From NCBI GenBank assembly GCA_048938855.1, contig JBHLLT010000026.1, positions 1-13,407 on the forward strand: a stretch of 13,407 bases of DNA, read 5' to 3'. Shown here piece by piece: positions 8,154-13,407 of the stretch. The notes beneath the pieces were generated by a model. That model saw nothing but the letters and a program-made list of their open reading frames with translations, ran no database searches and was not told the DNA's origin. Origin of the DNA: Promethearchaeota archaeon. GTDB lineage: Archaea; Asgardarchaeota; Lokiarchaeia; Sigyniarchaeales; SOKP01. The position numbers were made by a program, and so were the translations under genes. Numbering within the stretch: position 1 is the first letter of the stretch; the number at the start of each line of letters is the position of its first letter.

Positions 8154-8813
8154 ATGGAAAATGTAGAGAACTATATCCAATGCTATAATGATTATAAAAA
8201 AGGTAATTATGCATATGGAACTGTAACTTCTATTGAGGATATTAAGAACGCAATAAAAAATAAAAAGAGATTTGTGTTTACAAGGGGAGGAGCAAGAATT
8301 GAGATTATCATTAGCCTAATCACAATCTCTATAGGATTAATAATTACTTTAGGTCTATATGCCTTTTTCGGAAATCTTTTCACTTATAGTCTTTATAGTT
8401 TTTTGATAAGTCTTTTGCCTATTTTTGTCTTTGGACTATGTGGCTCTAGATTTTTATTTCCAGGATTATTTAAACTTCGGTCAAACTTTATAATTCTTGG
8501 CGCTGAAGGAATAGTTTACAAATTGTTGACAGGAGATGTTAAAAATTTTAACTGGAATGATGTTAGTATGGACATCATGGAAAAAACTGTAGAGATTTCA
8601 AGAACTAAACATTTAATTCACTTTGAAGAAATATATCTATCAATGCCAAATGGAGTCCTTTTAAAAAGTGGAGATTATACTTCAAAAGAATTCCCTAAGA
8701 GATTTACGGGGAAACAACGGGGTACACTTGTCTTTTCCACAATTTTATATTATTATAACTACTTTAAATTAGGATTATTAGAACCATCAAAAGGAGAATT
8801 ATATGGAGAATAA
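8154..8813 (+). CDS. Membrane protein, two TM helices plus a soluble C-terminal domain (bacterial PH-like?); paralog 1
   Basis: Hydrophobic segments IEIIISLITISIGLIITLGLYAFF and LYSFLISLLPIFVFGLCG, followed by FIILGAEGIVYK...FNWNDV, a pattern typical of bPH/YcxB-like domains. Confidence 0.75.
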   Translation: MENVENYIQCYNDYKKGNYAYGTVTSIEDIKNAIKNKKRFVFTRGGARIEIIISLITISIGLIITLGLYAFFGNLFTYSLYSFLISLLPIFVFGLCGSRFLFPGLFKLRSNFIILGAEGIVYKLLTGDVKNFNWNDVSMDIMEKTVEISRTKHLIHFEEIYLSMPNGVLLKSGDYTSKEFPKRFTGKQRGTLVFSTILYYYNYFKLGLLEPSKGELYGE

Positions 8814-9387
8814 TATTTTAGAAGAATTGGAAGAAGCTTACAAAAGTTATAAGAAAAGTGAATATATATTTGGCAAATACGGAGCAGGAGAACAAATTGA
8901 GAAAGCGTGTATGGAAGGAAAAATATTTGTACTAAAAGCTAATAAAAAGGTTTTTATTGGTTTTATAGCATTGTTAGCTCCCTTTATTTTTCCTTTTACT
9001 ATAGCGGAAGGTTTTATCATAATTTTAATTTCTGTCTTAATCGCAGATTCTATAGTTGGAATATTGTTACTTATTTTAAGTATTACTTATATAAGGTCGT
9101 TTATTGTTATTGGGCCGTCAGGATTTTATTATCGAAAAGTTGTTAAAAAAAGATTTTTTCAATGGAAGGATGTAACTCTTGCTCAAGCAAGTATCCATAC
9201 AACTATGGGAGGATACAGAAGACGCTCTGTAACAACAGGTCGGGTAGTAATCAAAATTCCTAATAAACATCAATTAACTTTTGATTCAACACGTTATAGA
9301 AGTAAAGAATTTGTGAGAAAAGTCAAACGAATGATGTTTATACGTCTTTTTGAAATTTATTATAAACTCGCTAATAAAAAGCTTTGA
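8803..9387 (+). CDS. Membrane protein, two TM helices plus a soluble C-terminal domain (bacterial PH-like?); paralog 2
   Basis: Hydrophobic segments VFIGFIALLAPFIFPF and FIIILISVLIADSIVGILLLILSITYI, then FIVIGPSGFYYR...FQWKDV. It overlaps the upstream gene by 11 nt, with AGGAG at 8792-8796. Confidence 0.75.
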   Translation: MENNILEELEEAYKSYKKSEYIFGKYGAGEQIEKACMEGKIFVLKANKKVFIGFIALLAPFIFPFTIAEGFIIILISVLIADSIVGILLLILSITYIRSFIVIGPSGFYYRKVVKKRFFQWKDVTLAQASIHTTMGGYRRRSVTTGRVVIKIPNKHQLTFDSTRYRSKEFVRKVKRMMFIRLFEIYYKLANKKL

Positions 9388-9472: not shown

Positions 9473-9991
9473 TTATAATGTTATCTGAATTTTATTATTT
9501 AATTCGGAAGCTATTTTAATTTGTTCCTCTTCAGGTATTTTCAGGATGTCTAATTTGAATACTCCATTTTGTTGATCATCATAGGGCATGCCTGAGGGCA
9601 AAGGAACGATATGCCAATGAACGTGTGAATTACCTTGATGGCTTCCAAGAGATAATATATAAATTCTCTTAGGTTTTAATACATCTATAATCGCTTTTGT
9701 AATAGTATAAATTTTACTTTGAATCGAGAGATAGTCCTCTTGATTGAAATCAAGAACTACACCTTCTTTATGCTTTTTTGGTGCTACTAATGTCCAACCA
9801 TATAATCGAGGATAAGCATCAAGAAATGAAATAATTTCCTCATCTTGATAAACAATGTGAGCGGGATATTTTGGATTGCCTTTTAGAATTTCACATATAA
9901 AACAAGGACCTGTTTGTGCTCTTTCATTATACTTTTTGACATCTAATTTATATCTGATATAATTATTATTATAATAATTATAGTCTCTCAT
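9473..9991 (-). CDS. HIT (histidine triad) family nucleotide hydrolase
   Basis: N-terminal CFIC, then IVYQDEEIISFLDAYP..GWTLVAPKKH, and the triad HVHWHIVP (HxHxHxx). Confidence 0.95.
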   Translation of the reverse strand: MRDYNYYNNNYIRYKLDVKKYNERAQTGPCFICEILKGNPKYPAHIVYQDEEIISFLDAYPRLYGWTLVAPKKHKEGVVLDFNQEDYLSIQSKIYTITKAIIDVLKPKRIYILSLGSHQGNSHVHWHIVPLPSGMPYDDQQNGVFKLDILKIPEEEQIKIASELNNKIQITL

Positions 9992-10021: not shown

Positions 10022-10045
10022 AATTGCTCAATTATTTATTTATAG

Positions 10046-10062
10046 AAAAAAGAAAGAAAAAA
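10046..10062 (-). terminator. Archaeal oligo(T) terminator candidate for the redox operon
   Basis: The minus strand reads TTTTTTCTTTCTTTTTT starting about 12 nt after the TusA stop codon. Confidence 0.55.
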
Positions 10063-10074
10063 TTAATTTTATAC

Positions 10075-10311
10075 TTACTTTACTGCTTCAAAATACATAT
10101 ACCATTGTTCATCATCATCAATGAATTCTGTTCCTAAATGTTTATGCTTTGTTTTTGCTAAATCGCGTGGAACGGATTCACTGGCAGGTTTATAATCTGT
10201 TATTACTTTTAAAACAGTCCCAGGTCTCATTTTCATGAGTTGTTTCTTAGTTTTTAAAGCTGGAACAGGACATACTAACCCGCAGACATTTAATTCCATA
10301 TCATATTTCAT
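10075..10311 (-). CDS. tusA: TusA/SirA family sulfur carrier protein (78 aa)
   Basis: LNVCGLVCPVPALKTKKQL...PGTVLKVITDYKPASESVP contains the CPxP TusA motif. The likely start is the ATG at 10311, which has an upstream AAGGAG; the ORF-track start at 10377 overlaps the upstream gene. Confidence 0.9.
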   Translation of the reverse strand: MKYDMELNVCGLVCPVPALKTKKQLMKMRPGTVLKVITDYKPASESVPRDLAKTKHKHLGTEFIDDDEQWYMYFEAVK

Positions 10312-10345
10312 GTTCTTTATCTCCTTTATTTTTTTAATTAAAACT

Positions 10346-12814
10346 TTAATCACAAACAATTGAGAATAATGGCTCATCCATATCAGGTTCAGCTTTCATC
10401 TCAAGTTCCATTAACTGAACTAAACGTAAAGCTTCATATCTCACTTTATTGGGCTCAAGTCTAATATTTCTTGAGATATCCGATATAGTACTTGAACCTT
10501 GAAGGGTTATGTAATCTAATACTTGTTGCCTTGGCGTCTTTTCGAAGTTCATTAATTCTCGCTTTGATTTTAGATTAATAGCAGTTTTCAACTCTTCCTC
10601 ATCAACTTCTCCTTGATCGAATAATCCCTTTTCAATTGCTTTTTCGACAAGTTCTTTACCTCGTTCTGTCCATATTACAACTGTAGTATAACCATCATTT
10701 GAACCTACTTCACCTGCAGTGAGATCAGAATAGATTGCAGGGAAGTCTTGACAGTGAGCACAGAAATGGTTGCAACTCAAACATCTTCTTGCTTCTTGTA
10801 GAGCCATATCTTCATTGAACATTTTATCAATCTCTTCAAAACTCCAATTAATTTCTTCAGTTGCATTATCTAGAGTTTCTGGTTTTAATGAATAATCTTT
10901 TGGTGGTTTTTTAGGTCCAGTGAAAAATGAATTCTCTCTCTTAAATCTTCCTTCCATTAAATTTTGTCCCTTCAAATATCGGTCAATTGAAAAGGCTGCT
11001 TCCTTTCCGTGAGCGATAGCAGCAATCGCTACAGCTTTAGAATTACTAATAATATCTCCACCAGCAAAAACTCCCGGTATATTTGTTTCAAAAGTGACTT
11101 CATTTACTTTTATCTTATTCCGCTCTTTTTCTAATTTATTATTTGTTGCAGCATCTATTTGTTCGAAATCTACTGCTTGGCCAACTGCGATTACAATTGA
11201 ATCAACGGATATCTCGTAATCTGAGCCCTCAATCTTGTTTAATGGCCTTCTTCCATTTTTATCAGGATTACCCCACTCAATATTATAACATTTTAAAACT
11301 AATTTATTCTCTTTATTCTGTGTAATTTTTAAGGTTGAAGTTTTAAAATGATATTCCATAAATTCCATCTCATTTTCAGGAATATCTCTTAACACCAGTT
11401 CTAGTTGTTCCTCTGACATAATATCAACAAGGTGAACCTTCTCAGCCCCCAATCTAAGAGCCGTTTGAGCAACATCAACTGCAACTGCTCCACCTCCAAT
11501 TATACCTAAAGTTTTCCCTTTAAATTCTTCTTTATTCTCCCAGTACCGATACTTTCTATCCATTAGAAAACTAATCGCTACATGAACATTTGGTAAATCT
11601 TCCCCTTCTAAGTGTAAAGTACGAGGTTTATATTGGCCAGTTGCTATAAAAATAGCTTTAAATCCGTCATTCTTTAAATCATCAATAGTCATTTCAGGAC
11701 CTAATGGCTTATTAAGGACTACTTCAACACCCGAGTCTATTATCCTACCTACATCATAATCTAATACATAATTAGGCAGTCTAAATTGAGGTACACCGAA
11801 TCTTAACATTCCTCCTGTTTGGTCTGTTTTTTCAAATATGGTTGGAGCATATCCCATTCTCCTCAAGAAATATGCTGCAGTCAATCCAGCTGGTCCAGAT
11901 CCAATAATTGCAACTTTTTTAGCATTTTTGAGAGATTTATCTTTTGCTTTCGATTTCTTTTTAGCCCTTTCAATTTCCCATTCTGTAACAAATTTCTTCA
12001 ATTCGCGAATGGCAACTGGATGGTCATCTCCAATTAAAGTACATCCATGTTCACATTCATTTGTACAAATTCTTCCACATATAGATGGAAGAGGATTATT
12101 TTCTCTAATTAAATCTACAGCATCTTGGTACTTTCCTTGACGTATTAATGATATATATCCTTGAGCATTTACACCAGAAGGACAATTATTACAACATGGA
12201 GAACATACTAAACCCTTATCAGTTTGGGCAGTTCTCATTTGAGAACTACAGAATAAACCAATTTTTAAAATATCTCTGTTCATTTCTTCTTCAATTTCAG
12301 CAGCCCCACGCATTTCACATGGGACTCCAACAATTCCTATTGGATCAAAAGTCTTGCCAGTAAGCTCTACTAATTGTTCTAAAACTCCAGATCTACCATA
12401 AATCACACCTGCTTTCTGTACTACTTCATCAGGATCCGAAACAATATCAGCAGTAGGTTTTTCATCATCTTCTTGAACCATTACCATTTCTTTAAGTGTC
12501 TCGTTTTCTAACAATTCTTTAGCAAATGTTGTTACAAAACCTCCGTTTGAGGCTTTCGCTAAAATTTCAGGATTTTTACTCCTTAACGAATATATTGCCA
12601 AAGGTTTTTTCTCTTTAAATTTCTTTTGAATTACTTGAGGGCAAGTTTGATAACATTTCCCACAATCTTGCCCATCTCTCTCTAAAATACAATAATCCTT
12701 AAGCGTTGGACGTTTAACTTCCATTACAATATGCTTACATGAACCAGCACATAATCCACATCCTTGACAAAGCCCGGCATCTACAATTTCGTCACTTAAT
12801 AATTTAAAACTCAT
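10346..12814 (-). CDS. Mosaic iron-sulfur flavoprotein: 2x[4Fe-4S] ferredoxin, split FrhB/FdhB-family domain with an inserted GltD/SudA-like FAD/NAD(P) oxidoreductase, and a C-terminal winged HTH
   Basis: Ferredoxin: CQGCGLCAGSC...C-x8-CGKCYQTCP. FrhB first part: ASNGGFVT, IVGVPCEMRG, IGLFC. GltD-like module: SPCCNNCP...NPLPSICGRIC..CEHGC, IIGSGPAGL, GGMLRFGVPQFRLP, GGGAVAVD, VFAGGD, EARRCLSC. FrhB resumes: CAHCQDF...SDLTAGEVGS.DGYTTVVIWTERGKELVEKA. Tail: RQQVLDYITLQGSSTISDISRNIRLEPNKVRYEALRL. Confidence 0.88.
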   Translation of the reverse strand: MSFKLLSDEIVDAGLCQGCGLCAGSCKHIVMEVKRPTLKDYCILERDGQDCGKCYQTCPQVIQKKFKEKKPLAIYSLRSKNPEILAKASNGGFVTTFAKELLENETLKEMVMVQEDDEKPTADIVSDPDEVVQKAGVIYGRSGVLEQLVELTGKTFDPIGIVGVPCEMRGAAEIEEEMNRDILKIGLFCSSQMRTAQTDKGLVCSPCCNNCPSGVNAQGYISLIRQGKYQDAVDLIRENNPLPSICGRICTNECEHGCTLIGDDHPVAIRELKKFVTEWEIERAKKKSKAKDKSLKNAKKVAIIGSGPAGLTAAYFLRRMGYAPTIFEKTDQTGGMLRFGVPQFRLPNYVLDYDVGRIIDSGVEVVLNKPLGPEMTIDDLKNDGFKAIFIATGQYKPRTLHLEGEDLPNVHVAISFLMDRKYRYWENKEEFKGKTLGIIGGGAVAVDVAQTALRLGAEKVHLVDIMSEEQLELVLRDIPENEMEFMEYHFKTSTLKITQNKENKLVLKCYNIEWGNPDKNGRRPLNKIEGSDYEISVDSIVIAVGQAVDFEQIDAATNNKLEKERNKIKVNEVTFETNIPGVFAGGDIISNSKAVAIAAIAHGKEAAFSIDRYLKGQNLMEGRFKRENSFFTGPKKPPKDYSLKPETLDNATEEINWSFEEIDKMFNEDMALQEARRCLSCNHFCAHCQDFPAIYSDLTAGEVGSNDGYTTVVIWTERGKELVEKAIEKGLFDQGEVDEEELKTAINLKSKRELMNFEKTPRQQVLDYITLQGSSTISDISRNIRLEPNKVRYEALRLVQLMELEMKAEPDMDEPLFSIVCD

Positions 12815-12816
12815 CC

Positions 12817-13407
12817 TTATCCCTCTTTTATTTTAATTTCTTTCACAACTCCAATTGGATCAATCGTAAATTCAACTGAACCATTCTTATAGGTTCCCTC
12901 AACCACATCAAAAACGTGGGTTTTATAATCTTCAAAATTATCATTTTCCCCTATTTTGGCTTTAAATCCACCGTAGTACAAGTTTGATAAATTCATGTTC
13001 CCTGCTATCTTTCGAATTTTATCTGTTATATCTTTATATTTGTTTGGATCTTTGTTATTAATTGCATCCCTTAATTCGATTTCTAAGTCTAGTAAATTTT
13101 TCCTATATTTCTTTGTCGTTTCACTCACTTCTAAATTATTAGCGTGTTCATACGTCTCTATAATTTTAATTGTTAATGAAATAAAATGATCTCCTCCTAA
13201 TAGTCCTGAAATCAATGGTAATTCTTCAATTAATCTTCCCGTAAATACATCTTCTAACAAACTCCCCGAATTAGGAATTCTTCCTTTCGGTAATCTTGAT
13301 GTTGGGAGCGTAAACCTAAAGAAATTTCCAACTACATCTGGTAAGCTTTCAGTAATCTCGTCATCCCTATCAGCTAGTTTATCAGTTGCTCCTTTTTCAG
13401 AATGTTC
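12817..13407 (-). CDS. 5'-truncated gene: C-terminus of an MvhG-like [NiFe]-hydrogenase small subunit plus an extension of about 150 aa resembling a degenerate large-subunit fragment
   Basis: The frame is open to the window edge (EHSEKGATDKLADRDDEITESLPDVVGNFFRFTLPTSRLPKGRIPNSGSLLEDVFTGR...). PDVVGNFFRFTLP (13303-13341) matches the MvhG/VhuG C-terminal PDPVGTFYRF(S/T)L motif. The TTG at 13260 is internal. The stop lies 2 nt from the next ATG. Confidence 0.6.
   Translation of the reverse strand, partial: EHSEKGATDKLADRDDEITESLPDVVGNFFRFTLPTSRLPKGRIPNSGSLLEDVFTGRLIEELPLISGLLGGDHFISLTIKIIETYEHANNLEVSETTKKYRKNLLDLEIELRDAINNKDPNKYKDITDKIRKIAGNMNLSNLYYGGFKAKIGENDNFEDYKTHVFDVVEGTYKNGSVEFTIDPIGVVKEIKIKEG

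Follow-up and report, generated by a model that had tools for sequence, protein, structure and literature searches.

At one end of the 13,407-nucleotide (nt) stretch of Promethearchaeota archaeon DNA analysed here (hereafter the window, contig C24:1-13407 of a 3.95-Mb genome in 93 contigs, 97% complete with 7% contamination), three co-oriented minus-strand open reading frames (ORFs) at 10075-13407 close an operon that encodes Hdr, MvhD and sulfur-carrier proteins, an MvhG-like hydrogenase small-subunit homologue and an FrhB::GltD flavoprotein fusion of 822 amino acids (aa). We hold, with rather more conviction than doubt, that this operon encodes a hydrogenase-independent input arm, fed by reduced nicotinamide adenine dinucleotide (NADH) and/or reduced coenzyme F420 (F420H2), for a bifurcating HdrABC-MvhD complex acting on carrier-bound sulfane sulfur. 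The argument starts from gene content, domain architecture, cofactor motifs, the loss of a nickel (Ni) site and a tight, conserved synteny.

The upstream part of the operon had been placed outside the window by an earlier note made from the sequence, and nine further genes were indeed found past a scaffold gap. According to Pfam, twelve genes on the same strand follow one another in the order tusA-dsrE-dsrF-dsrH-dsrE2-hdrC-hdrB-hdrA-mvhD-(mvhG-like)-frhB::gltD-tusA, the upstream types being TusA, DsrE, a second DsrE in the DsrF position, DsrH, DrsE_2, an HdrC-type dicluster protein, HdrB with two CCG domains, HdrA and FlpD (MvhD). The same note had proposed to look upstream for mvhD, hdrA or an intact mvhA; mvhD and hdrA are present, together with hdrB, hdrC, dsrE2, dsrEFH and a second tusA, and neither an intact mvhA nor any other large-subunit gene was found in the operon when Pfam was run on the upstream genes. 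HdrA matches 5odc_A over its full length (E 2e-195), HdrB matches 9sfi_C/5odc_B (E ~1e-92) with its CCG motifs intact, and MvhD matches methanogen MvhD (E 5e-26); full-length HdrA, HdrB with two CCG motifs, HdrC and MvhD thus stand together in a single operon. The mvhD and mvhG-like ORFs overlap. At its other end mvhD, as called, shares 47 nt with the end of hdrA (L003:4671-4717, contig C24); MvhD homology begins only at ORF residue 32, and translation probably starts at a Met further downstream. Reviews describe Lokiarchaeia as using selenocysteine in HdrA/VhuD-type proteins. The operon is preceded by a divergent Lrp/AsnC regulator and flanked by sugar-metabolism genes.

Conservation of the three-gene order was assessed in 45 loci, one genome per species, all from metagenome-assembled genomes (MAGs) filed under Promethearchaeota or another Asgard name, with flavoproteins of 69-95% identity. 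The MvhG-like gene ends at most 60 nt upstream of the flavoprotein gene in all 39 assessable loci, tusA starts 20-49 nt downstream of it in 40 of 41, and the complete 12-gene set occurs in identical order in 24. The order is also kept in distant members of the same order of archaea, at 45-75% identity; among them, two closed genomes of a sister family (6.04 Mb and 4.32 Mb) carry the whole operon at 35-76% identity per gene. The single exception without a downstream tusA (L041:5239-7635, plus strand) encodes a 798-aa flavoprotein in which a deletion takes away the GxGxxG motif for flavin adenine dinucleotide (FAD) of the GltD module; decay of the copy or an error of assembly may explain this. 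When 400 Asgard genomes were surveyed with the flavoprotein as query (E cut-off 1e-120), matches were obtained in 96 of the 134 genomes of the window's family (some through an HdrC-GltD-HdrB paralogue only, so that the count of full-length fusions is lower), in 6 of 14 genomes of one sister family and in 1 of 4 of another; one match outside these families, at 82% identity, may reflect mis-binning, and the remaining ~225 genomes gave none.

The features of the locus are listed below, with window coordinates unless the contig is named.
12817-13407, minus strand: 3' part of the mvhG-like gene, last 196 codons and stop, 5'-open; the full protein, 411 aa, is an MvhG-like homologue of [NiFe]-hydrogenase small subunits (Oxidored_q6; MvhG matches)
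Contig C24 13508-14230: 5' part of the mvhG-like gene, beyond a 100-N scaffold gap
12820-13290, minus strand: C-terminal extension of the MvhG-like protein, ~155 aa, Cys-free (hhalign, column conservation, AlphaFold2)
10346-12814, minus strand: FrhB::GltD fusion gene, 822 aa
12605-12814, minus strand: fusion residues 1-70, ferredoxin-like domain for two [4Fe-4S] clusters with 8 conserved Cys (FpoF-like; 8rja_E and Fsr N-termini matches)
12245-12598, minus strand: fusion residues 73-190, N-terminal, FAD-binding half of FrhB/FdhB, last motif IGLFC (PF04422; AlphaFold2)
10784-12232, minus strand: fusion residues ~195-677, complete GltD/NfnB-type module, inserted into FrhB (Pfam, alignments, Foldseek)
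10544-10783, minus strand: fusion residues 678-757, C-terminal half of FrhB/FdhB, restarting RCLSCNHFCAHCQDF... (PF04432; FrhB chains)
10349-10540, minus strand: fusion residues 759-822, winged-helix-like tail (AlphaFold2 topology; weak Pfam hints)
10312-10345, minus strand: intergenic spacer of 34 nt between the fusion gene and tusA, with AAGGAG at 10321-10326
10075-10311, minus strand: TusA-family sulfur carrier, 78 aa (PF01206)
10045-10062, minus strand: T-rich tract 3' of the tusA stop, likely an archaeal oligo-T terminator at the operon end

All three ORFs and both gaps (2 nt at 12815-12816, and 34 nt) agree exactly with the layout given in the earlier note, as do its Shine-Dalgarno-like sites and terminal T-tract: GAGGGA/AAGG for the fusion gene sits within the 3' end of the mvhG-like gene, AAGGAG lies 9 nt 5' of the tusA ATG, and the T-rich run (~10045-10062) follows the tusA stop. 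For tusA, a 100-aa ORF from 10377 was set aside in favour of the 78-codon start at 10311, since the longer frame overlaps the fusion gene and the homologues favour the shorter one. The 3' edge of the window abuts the 100-N scaffold gap (from base 13408), and the 77 nt on its two sides are identical (window 13331-13407, and the end of contig C24 13408-13584, L003 3409-3585); this is an unmerged contig overlap, typical of k=77, which splits the MvhG-like gene. A 470-aa version of the mvhG-like ORF with an internal repeat was accordingly rejected as an artefact of the gap, the relatives all being 411 aa long and their BLAST segments overlapping by exactly the duplicated 77-nt stretch. Judged by their homologues, the three ORFs are genuine genes and not chance ORFs, because the mvhG-like and fusion genes have more than 100 homologues at 70-96% identity and their synteny is near perfect; decay of the extension or of the fusion into a pseudogene was discarded on the same strong conservation over more than 100 sequences. 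The gene beyond tusA encodes an unrelated HIT-family protein (9473-9991), and further into the window, for two adjacent plus-strand ORFs at 8154-9387 (219 and 194 aa), Pfam returns no family at E 1e-4.

The first of the three genes had been described in the earlier note as an MvhG-like subunit with a large-subunit-like remnant. Its MvhG-like character holds: residues 1-256 match the MvhG of solved Mvh-Hdr complexes (9sw2_E, E 7e-16; 5odc_E, E 5e-14), the match to FrhG being far poorer (E 0.5), and the homology stops near residue 256, which is the extreme C-terminus of MvhG with its FxFTLP motif. The full-length protein scores 42 bits against Oxidored_q6 (PF01058, cut-off 27); the 196-aa fragment by itself has no Pfam match. 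Thirteen cysteines, four at the ligand positions of the proximal cluster and nine in the medial/distal region, are invariant in 61 sequences and lie in the N-terminal 190 residues, outside the window, and the wire of three iron-sulfur (FeS) clusters appears intact. The Oxidored_q6 fold and the ligands for three clusters are those of a group 3c small subunit, and Foldseek and VIA also retrieve small subunits. The RxCGxC and DPCxxC motifs of a group 3c large subunit are missing, no gene of the operon carrying them and the C-terminal extension of the MvhG-like protein being free of cysteine.

That extension (residues 257-411) is highly conserved, with 80% mean column identity and ~50 invariant positions in 25 genomes. 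We compared its profile with a profile of 26 Lokiarchaeial NiFe large subunits by hhalign, with reversed profiles as controls: residues 10-71 of the extension pair with large-subunit residues 39-100, the P value being 1.4e-4 when the whole extension is used and 3.4e-5 when its first 75 residues are, against 0.27-0.61 for the reversed controls. In this alignment GLLGGD occupies the position of the Ni-binding RICGIC, and the Ni-binding cysteines are lost. The remnant claimed by the earlier note can therefore be kept, with moderate support, for the first ~60 residues, probably left over from the L1 region of a NiFe large subunit, and it is unproven for the remainder: residues 72-157 show no significant large-subunit similarity by hhalign (best P 0.03, to residues 393-407). 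As this weak match is collinear, a circular permutation of the relic is unsupported. The relic is detected by profile-profile comparison only; pairwise BLASTP of the extension against the two NiFe large subunits of the same genome returned nothing significant, Pfam gave noise-level matches only (E up to 5), and the ESM Atlas gave no usable match. AlphaFold2 (AF2) models the 411-aa protein poorly (predicted local distance difference test, pLDDT, 54 overall), the extension being drawn as four helices at 265-352 (pLDDT mostly 60-87) and a hairpin at 391-410. Foldseek and VIA recognise the small-subunit half only, the extension falling among generic helical bundles (VIA, Z ~5-6), so that fold searches neither support nor exclude a large-subunit origin.

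The second gene had been read as a mosaic of ferredoxin, FrhB, GltD and winged helix-turn-helix (wHTH) parts, and this domain order is borne out by Pfam, by alignments and, for the tail, by AF2. Pfam places FrhB_FdhB_N at 75-148, Fer4_20 at 190-283, Pyr_redox_2 at 299-603 and FrhB_FdhB_C at 659-739, Fer4_20 and Pyr_redox_2 likewise exceeding their cut-offs. Residues 9-192 are FpoF-like, and the ferredoxin domain, with invariant C16, C19, C22, C26, C42, C51, C54 and C58, also matches 8rja_E and the N-termini of Fsr. The N-terminal half of FrhB reaches 50 bits against PF04422 (cut-off 22; AF2 pLDDT 70-91) and the C-terminal half 67 bits against PF04432 (cut-off 23.3). Solved FrhB chains align with the first part up to their residue ~190-200 and with the second from their residue ~192, 9r51_B, 6qgr_B and 3zfs_C meeting the C-terminal half of the fusion at their own residues ~192-268; to judge from these alignments the GltD module is a clean insertion within FrhB and not an end-to-end fusion. 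FrhB resumes at a CxxCxxxCxxC stretch with invariant C678, C681, C685 and C688. Both Pfam halves and the cluster cysteines of the FrhB/FdhB family are present (C166, C189, C685 and C688, all invariant), although some 490 residues separate the halves. The tail is predicted with the topology H761-772, H777-784, H788-800, E804-807, E816-819 at pLDDT 84-90, and its Pfam hints are weak (HTH_9, E 0.038; EarA, E 0.22).

The inserted module carries two [4Fe-4S] motifs, an FAD GxGxxG motif and an NAD(P)H GGGxxAxD motif, as expected of the GltD/NfnB/SudA family, with invariant Cys and Gly. Its best matches come from NAD(P)H modules of enzymes that bifurcate electrons, namely NfnA of NfnABC (9n5u_A, E 3e-90), StnC (8oh5_C) and the NfnB of NfnI (4ylf_B/5jca_L), and Foldseek recovers the same proteins (9n5u_A, E 8e-33; 5jca_L; 8oh5_C). 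The NADPH-type motif YRR(S/T)..EMPA of NfnA, NfnB and StnC is missing, however, being replaced by VDIMSEEQLEL throughout the main clade. In Rossmann folds an acidic residue at this place disfavours, as a rule, the 2'-phosphate. Because the acidic VDIMSEE replaces the 2'-phosphate motif, NADH is likelier than NADPH for this module, and the sequence suggests NADH as its donor. The NADPH-type motif is kept only in a distant tandem copy (P0243 type): in one genus of a sister family a second flavoprotein gene, 43-46% identical, follows tusA and retains YRRS (L096:1665-4405 and L094:7366-10074, both minus strand), so that the VDIMSEE and YRRS copies would fit a pair of inputs for different nucleotides. 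In L096 this copy seems to carry a frameshift around residue 150. The full-length architecture recurs in only two proteins (57% and 46% identity) among 1.84 billion cluster representatives, other matches covering the GltD part alone, and homologues of the fusion bear generic database names such as 'FAD-dependent oxidoreductase'.

The terminal gene was correctly called tusA in the earlier note: PF01206 reaches 68 bits (cut-off 28.6, E 6e-19) and the CPxP cysteine lies in VCGLVCPVP. No other gene of the operon is as well conserved (86-100% identity). The NCBIfam equivalogs for E. coli TusA and YedF remain below their cut-offs, and by these scores the protein is a member of the TusA family without being an orthologue of either. 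Five other TusA-domain genes occur in the genome, among them that of a tusA-iscS-nifU biosynthetic cluster and a fusion of a pyridine-nucleotide disulfide oxidoreductase, TusA and a rhodanese. As the separate tusA-iscS-nifU cluster serves biosynthesis, the two TusAs of the operon look dedicated to the Hdr system and are unlikely to be general biosynthetic carriers. The 798-aa triple fusion, persulfide-reductase-like, lies on contig C49 (L097:2469-9581) in a neighbourhood that also holds rubrerythrin, desulfoferrodoxin, an HdrD-like Fer4+CCG protein and tusA-iscS-nifU. YedE/TsuA-type transporters were not found in the genome.

What the genome encodes elsewhere bears on both donor and substrate. 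F420 is available to the organism, given that cofH and cofD score above their cut-offs. The coenzyme M (CoM) biosynthesis gene comA was not found in the 97%-complete genome, coenzyme B (CoB) synthesis and alternative CoM routes not having been examined, and CoM-S-S-CoB is for that reason an unlikely substrate of HdrB. Genuine NiFe large subunits are encoded at other loci: contig C77 (L055:1149-6999, plus strand) carries an FrhB-like protein (383 aa, with an N-terminal ferredoxin domain), an 849-aa wHTH(DUF7347)-HdrA-MvhD fusion and NiFe small and large subunits, an HdrA linked to a hydrogenase with no adjacent hdrBC, and contig C42 (L049, 2526 bp) holds a partial mvhG, mvhA and hycI. The large subunit of the latter is 37-49% identical to those of the same genus, and this contig may be contamination. 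There are ~19 CCG-domain proteins (37 CCG-domain hits) and several Hdr sets, unusually many for a non-methanogen. One of them, a 920-aa paralogue found in most genomes of the window's family (contig C62, L092:7328-10090, minus strand), joins an HdrC-like dicluster domain, a GltD module and two HdrB-type CCG domains; its GltD module is 56-58% identical to the one studied and has the same acidic motif (VDIL), and the protein looks like a direct NADH-dependent disulfide reductase. As this paralogue fuses the GltD module to HdrC and HdrB domains, the lineage has coupled the module repeatedly to Hdr-type chemistry.

Taken in this setting, the operon would encode a cytoplasmic relative of the MvhAGD-HdrABC flavin-based electron-bifurcating complex, without hydrogenase. 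In the model that we favour, the 822-aa flavoprotein would replace H2 as donor, with hydride entering at the FAD of the GltD module, probably from NADH, or alternatively at the FrhB-type FAD, from F420H2. From there electrons would travel via the flavoprotein's five or six FeS clusters to the MvhG-like protein, which may act as the wire to MvhD and to HdrA's bifurcating FAD, its Cys-free relic serving probably as a structural cap or docking element. HdrB would reduce disulfide- or persulfide-type sulfur delivered by TusA, DsrEFH and DsrE2, and the second electron would go to ferredoxin. Since sulfur-relay genes surround the hdr genes and CoM synthesis was not found, carrier-bound sulfane sulfur, a protein disulfide or a trisulfide is the probable substrate. 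The physical assembly, the identity of the donor, the substrate and the direction are what we infer from these features. A bolder version, in which two bifurcation-competent flavins work in series (the GltD-module FAD and the HdrA FAD), hydride comes from both NADH and F420H2, and the persulfide of a carrier (TusA, DsrE2 or DsrEFH) is the Hdr substrate, is in our opinion a long shot.

Several points weigh against a hydrogenase-independent input arm for Hdr. The two flavin sites of the flavoprotein make the donor ambiguous, and the use of F420 is not readable from a split FrhB sequence; some FrhB-family proteins use ferredoxin instead. By standard potentials, bifurcation from NADH (~-320 mV) to ferredoxin calls for an acceptor that lies well above ~-200 mV, with polysulfide/HS- near -260 mV, and there is little thermodynamic room for NADH-driven bifurcation with polysulfide-type acceptors. 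The genome yielded no DsrC/TusE-type acceptor, which leaves the end of the sulfur relay undefined. The operon is moreover one of many Hdr systems in the genome, the AT-rich spacer before tusA would allow separate transcription of this gene, and the L041 relative has neither a downstream tusA nor the FAD motif of the GltD module. A complex prediction with the MvhG-like protein and the two FrhB halves, the GltD insert being cut out, scored 0.16 against a mark of 0.32, which is no evidence either way.

These points invite other explanations, of which the same complex working in reverse deserves attention although we consider it unlikely. In such a confurcating, oxidative mode reduced ferredoxin and a thiol or sulfide would be oxidised at HdrB, NAD+ or F420 would be reduced, and sulfane sulfur would be loaded onto TusA, DsrE2 and DsrEFH, which would make it a sulfide-oxidising or sulfur-mobilising system, in function nearer to sHdr. 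The juxtaposition of TusA and DsrE with hdr genes is a hallmark of the sulfur-oxidising sHdr system (PMC11094781, PMC6067878), Hdr and Nfn-type enzymes are reversible in principle, and the MAG titles point to sulfidic sediment as habitat. The Hdr proteins nonetheless belong to the methanogen type, with MvhD and one hdrCBA set in place of hdrC1B1A-hyp-C2B2, no lipoate-binding protein is among the 12 operon genes, and biosynthetic sulfur already has a cysteine desulfurase route. To a slightly lesser degree one could imagine that the MvhG-like protein, FrhB::GltD and TusA form a self-contained unit, merely co-regulated with Hdr and not docked on it, such as an Nfn-like NADH:F420/ferredoxin oxidoreductase or a SudA/NSR-like, NAD(P)H-dependent reductase of TusA persulfide or polysulfide. 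The nearest relatives of the GltD module (NfnA, NfnB, StnC) are themselves bifurcating sites, a single chain holds two flavins, TusA directly follows the flavoprotein and is itself followed by a second flavoprotein copy in one genus, and the HdrC-GltD-HdrB paralogue shows that HdrA is not needed for GltD to feed a CCG site. This is difficult to reconcile with MvhD, which stands directly before the MvhG-like gene with overlapping ORFs in every locus and whose one known role is to link a donor module to HdrA (PMC12350162); besides, the flavoprotein offers neither a CCG nor any other obvious site for sulfur reduction, and outside this operon the fusion was found only as the tandem extra copy.

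That the 822-aa protein should be, by virtue of its winged-helix tail, a redox-sensing transcription factor of the operon instead of a structural subunit seems very improbable to us. The tail is indeed predicted with high confidence as three helices and a beta-hairpin, and some source annotations add 'predicted transcriptional regulator', but the Pfam hints for it are weak, a dedicated divergent Lrp/AsnC regulator lies upstream, an 822-aa protein with many clusters and two flavins is an unlikely sensor, and the wHTH (DUF7347) on the HdrA-MvhD fusion of the same genome suggests a structural role for such domains in this enzyme family.

Genes for soluble HdrABC-MvhD occur commonly in Asgard archaea, Bathyarchaeia and many non-methanogenic anaerobic bacteria, and what their products use as substrate and donor has long been a puzzle. 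In the metabolic models published for Lokiarchaeia such genes are usually taken for 'MvhADG-HdrABC', i.e., for H2-dependent. In the window's family and order, an Hdr set stands beside MvhD and MvhG without a hydrogenase catalytic subunit, with an NADH/F420-type flavoprotein and bracketed by a complete persulfide relay, and the inference of hydrogen dependence from MvhD/MvhG-HdrABC genes needs changing. The operon names concrete, purifiable candidates, with NADH and F420H2 as donors and TusA/DsrE-bound sulfur as acceptor, and the homologous operons in closed genomes of the same order make biochemical tests look feasible. Should the bolder version with two flavins in series hold true, it would be the first definition of a role for soluble HdrABC in non-methanogenic Asgard archaea and would provide these archaea with a sulfur-dependent route to reduced ferredoxin.

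How far the complex is undescribed, as the earlier note had it, depends on the part considered. Full-text literature searches found no description of the arm made of the MvhG relic and FrhB::GltD; the general link between Hdr and TusA/DsrE has, on the other hand, already been proposed, in the available passages of a preprint, for the Asgard archaeon Nerearchaeum marumarumayae, whose cytosolic Hdr is thought to reduce TusA- or DsrE-bound persulfides (bioRxiv 10.1101/2025.07.22.663070). The donor there is H2 with a group 3c [NiFe] hydrogenase, and those passages make no mention of an MvhG-relic/FrhB::GltD arm. A similar proximity of TusA/DsrE carriers to hdr genes, with carrier-bound sulfur as the presumed Hdr substrate, is known from the sHdr systems with TusA/DsrE3 of Hyphomicrobium and Sulfolobales (PMC11094781, PMC4175335). 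These have hdrC1B1A-hyp-C2B2 and lipoate-binding proteins and lack MvhD and MvhG, whereas the present operon combines a single methanogen-type hdrCBA with mvhD and an input arm; no lipoyl/GcvH-type Pfam match occurs among its 12 genes, a genome-wide search for LbpA not having been made.

Each part of the arm has its own relatives. With the modules of NfnAB, NfnABC and StnABC (4YLF, 5JCA, 9N5U, 9BOV, 8OH5) the GltD module shares 30-32% identity over ~480 residues, the same two [4Fe-4S] motifs and the FAD and dinucleotide sites; it differs in being inserted in another flavoprotein fold and in the change of YRRS..EMPA to VDIMSEEQLEL in the main clade. FrhB, FdhB and FpoF (3ZFS, 6QGR) share with the fusion both Pfam halves, the SSGG-type FAD motif and the four cluster cysteines, the N-terminal ferredoxin domain being found as in FpoF and Fsr, but here the fold is split after IGLFC by ~490 residues. 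As a whole, the system resembles MvhAGD-HdrABC of hydrogenotrophic methanogens (5ODC, 9SW2) in its HdrA, HdrB, HdrC and MvhD and in an MvhG-type subunit with three FeS clusters. It departs from that complex by the absence of MvhA, instead of which a Cys-free relic is found on MvhG and a flavoprotein gene in the place of mvhA, and by the flanking sulfur-carrier genes, CoM-S-S-CoB being probably not the substrate.

The closest precedent is the Elp-Hdr complex of Methanothermobacter marburgensis, in which ElpA (FdhA minus its molybdopterin domain), ElpB (an F420H2 oxidase of the FrhB/FdhB type) and ElpC (an MvhD homologue) replace Mvh (Nature 2025, PMC12350162). Both systems keep the remnant of a dead catalytic subunit as an FeS scaffold, use an FrhB/FdhB-type flavoprotein as input and rely on an MvhD-type connector to HdrA. 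The Elp scaffold derives, however, from the formate dehydrogenase FdhA, truncated in ElpA, whereas the scaffold here is of the Oxidored_q6/MvhG type and originates from a hydrogenase (MvhG and the large-subunit relic), and the system, though similar to Elp in its working, falls outside that group; ElpB is a plain FdhB, whereas the present FrhB has an inserted GltD/NfnB module and a wHTH tail; and Elp serves methanogenesis with CoM-S-S-CoB. The operon would accordingly be, after Elp-Hdr, a second independent case in which a catalytic subunit was reduced to a scaffold and a flavoprotein took over the electron input, and we would class it among the Hdr bifurcating complexes with exchangeable donor modules.

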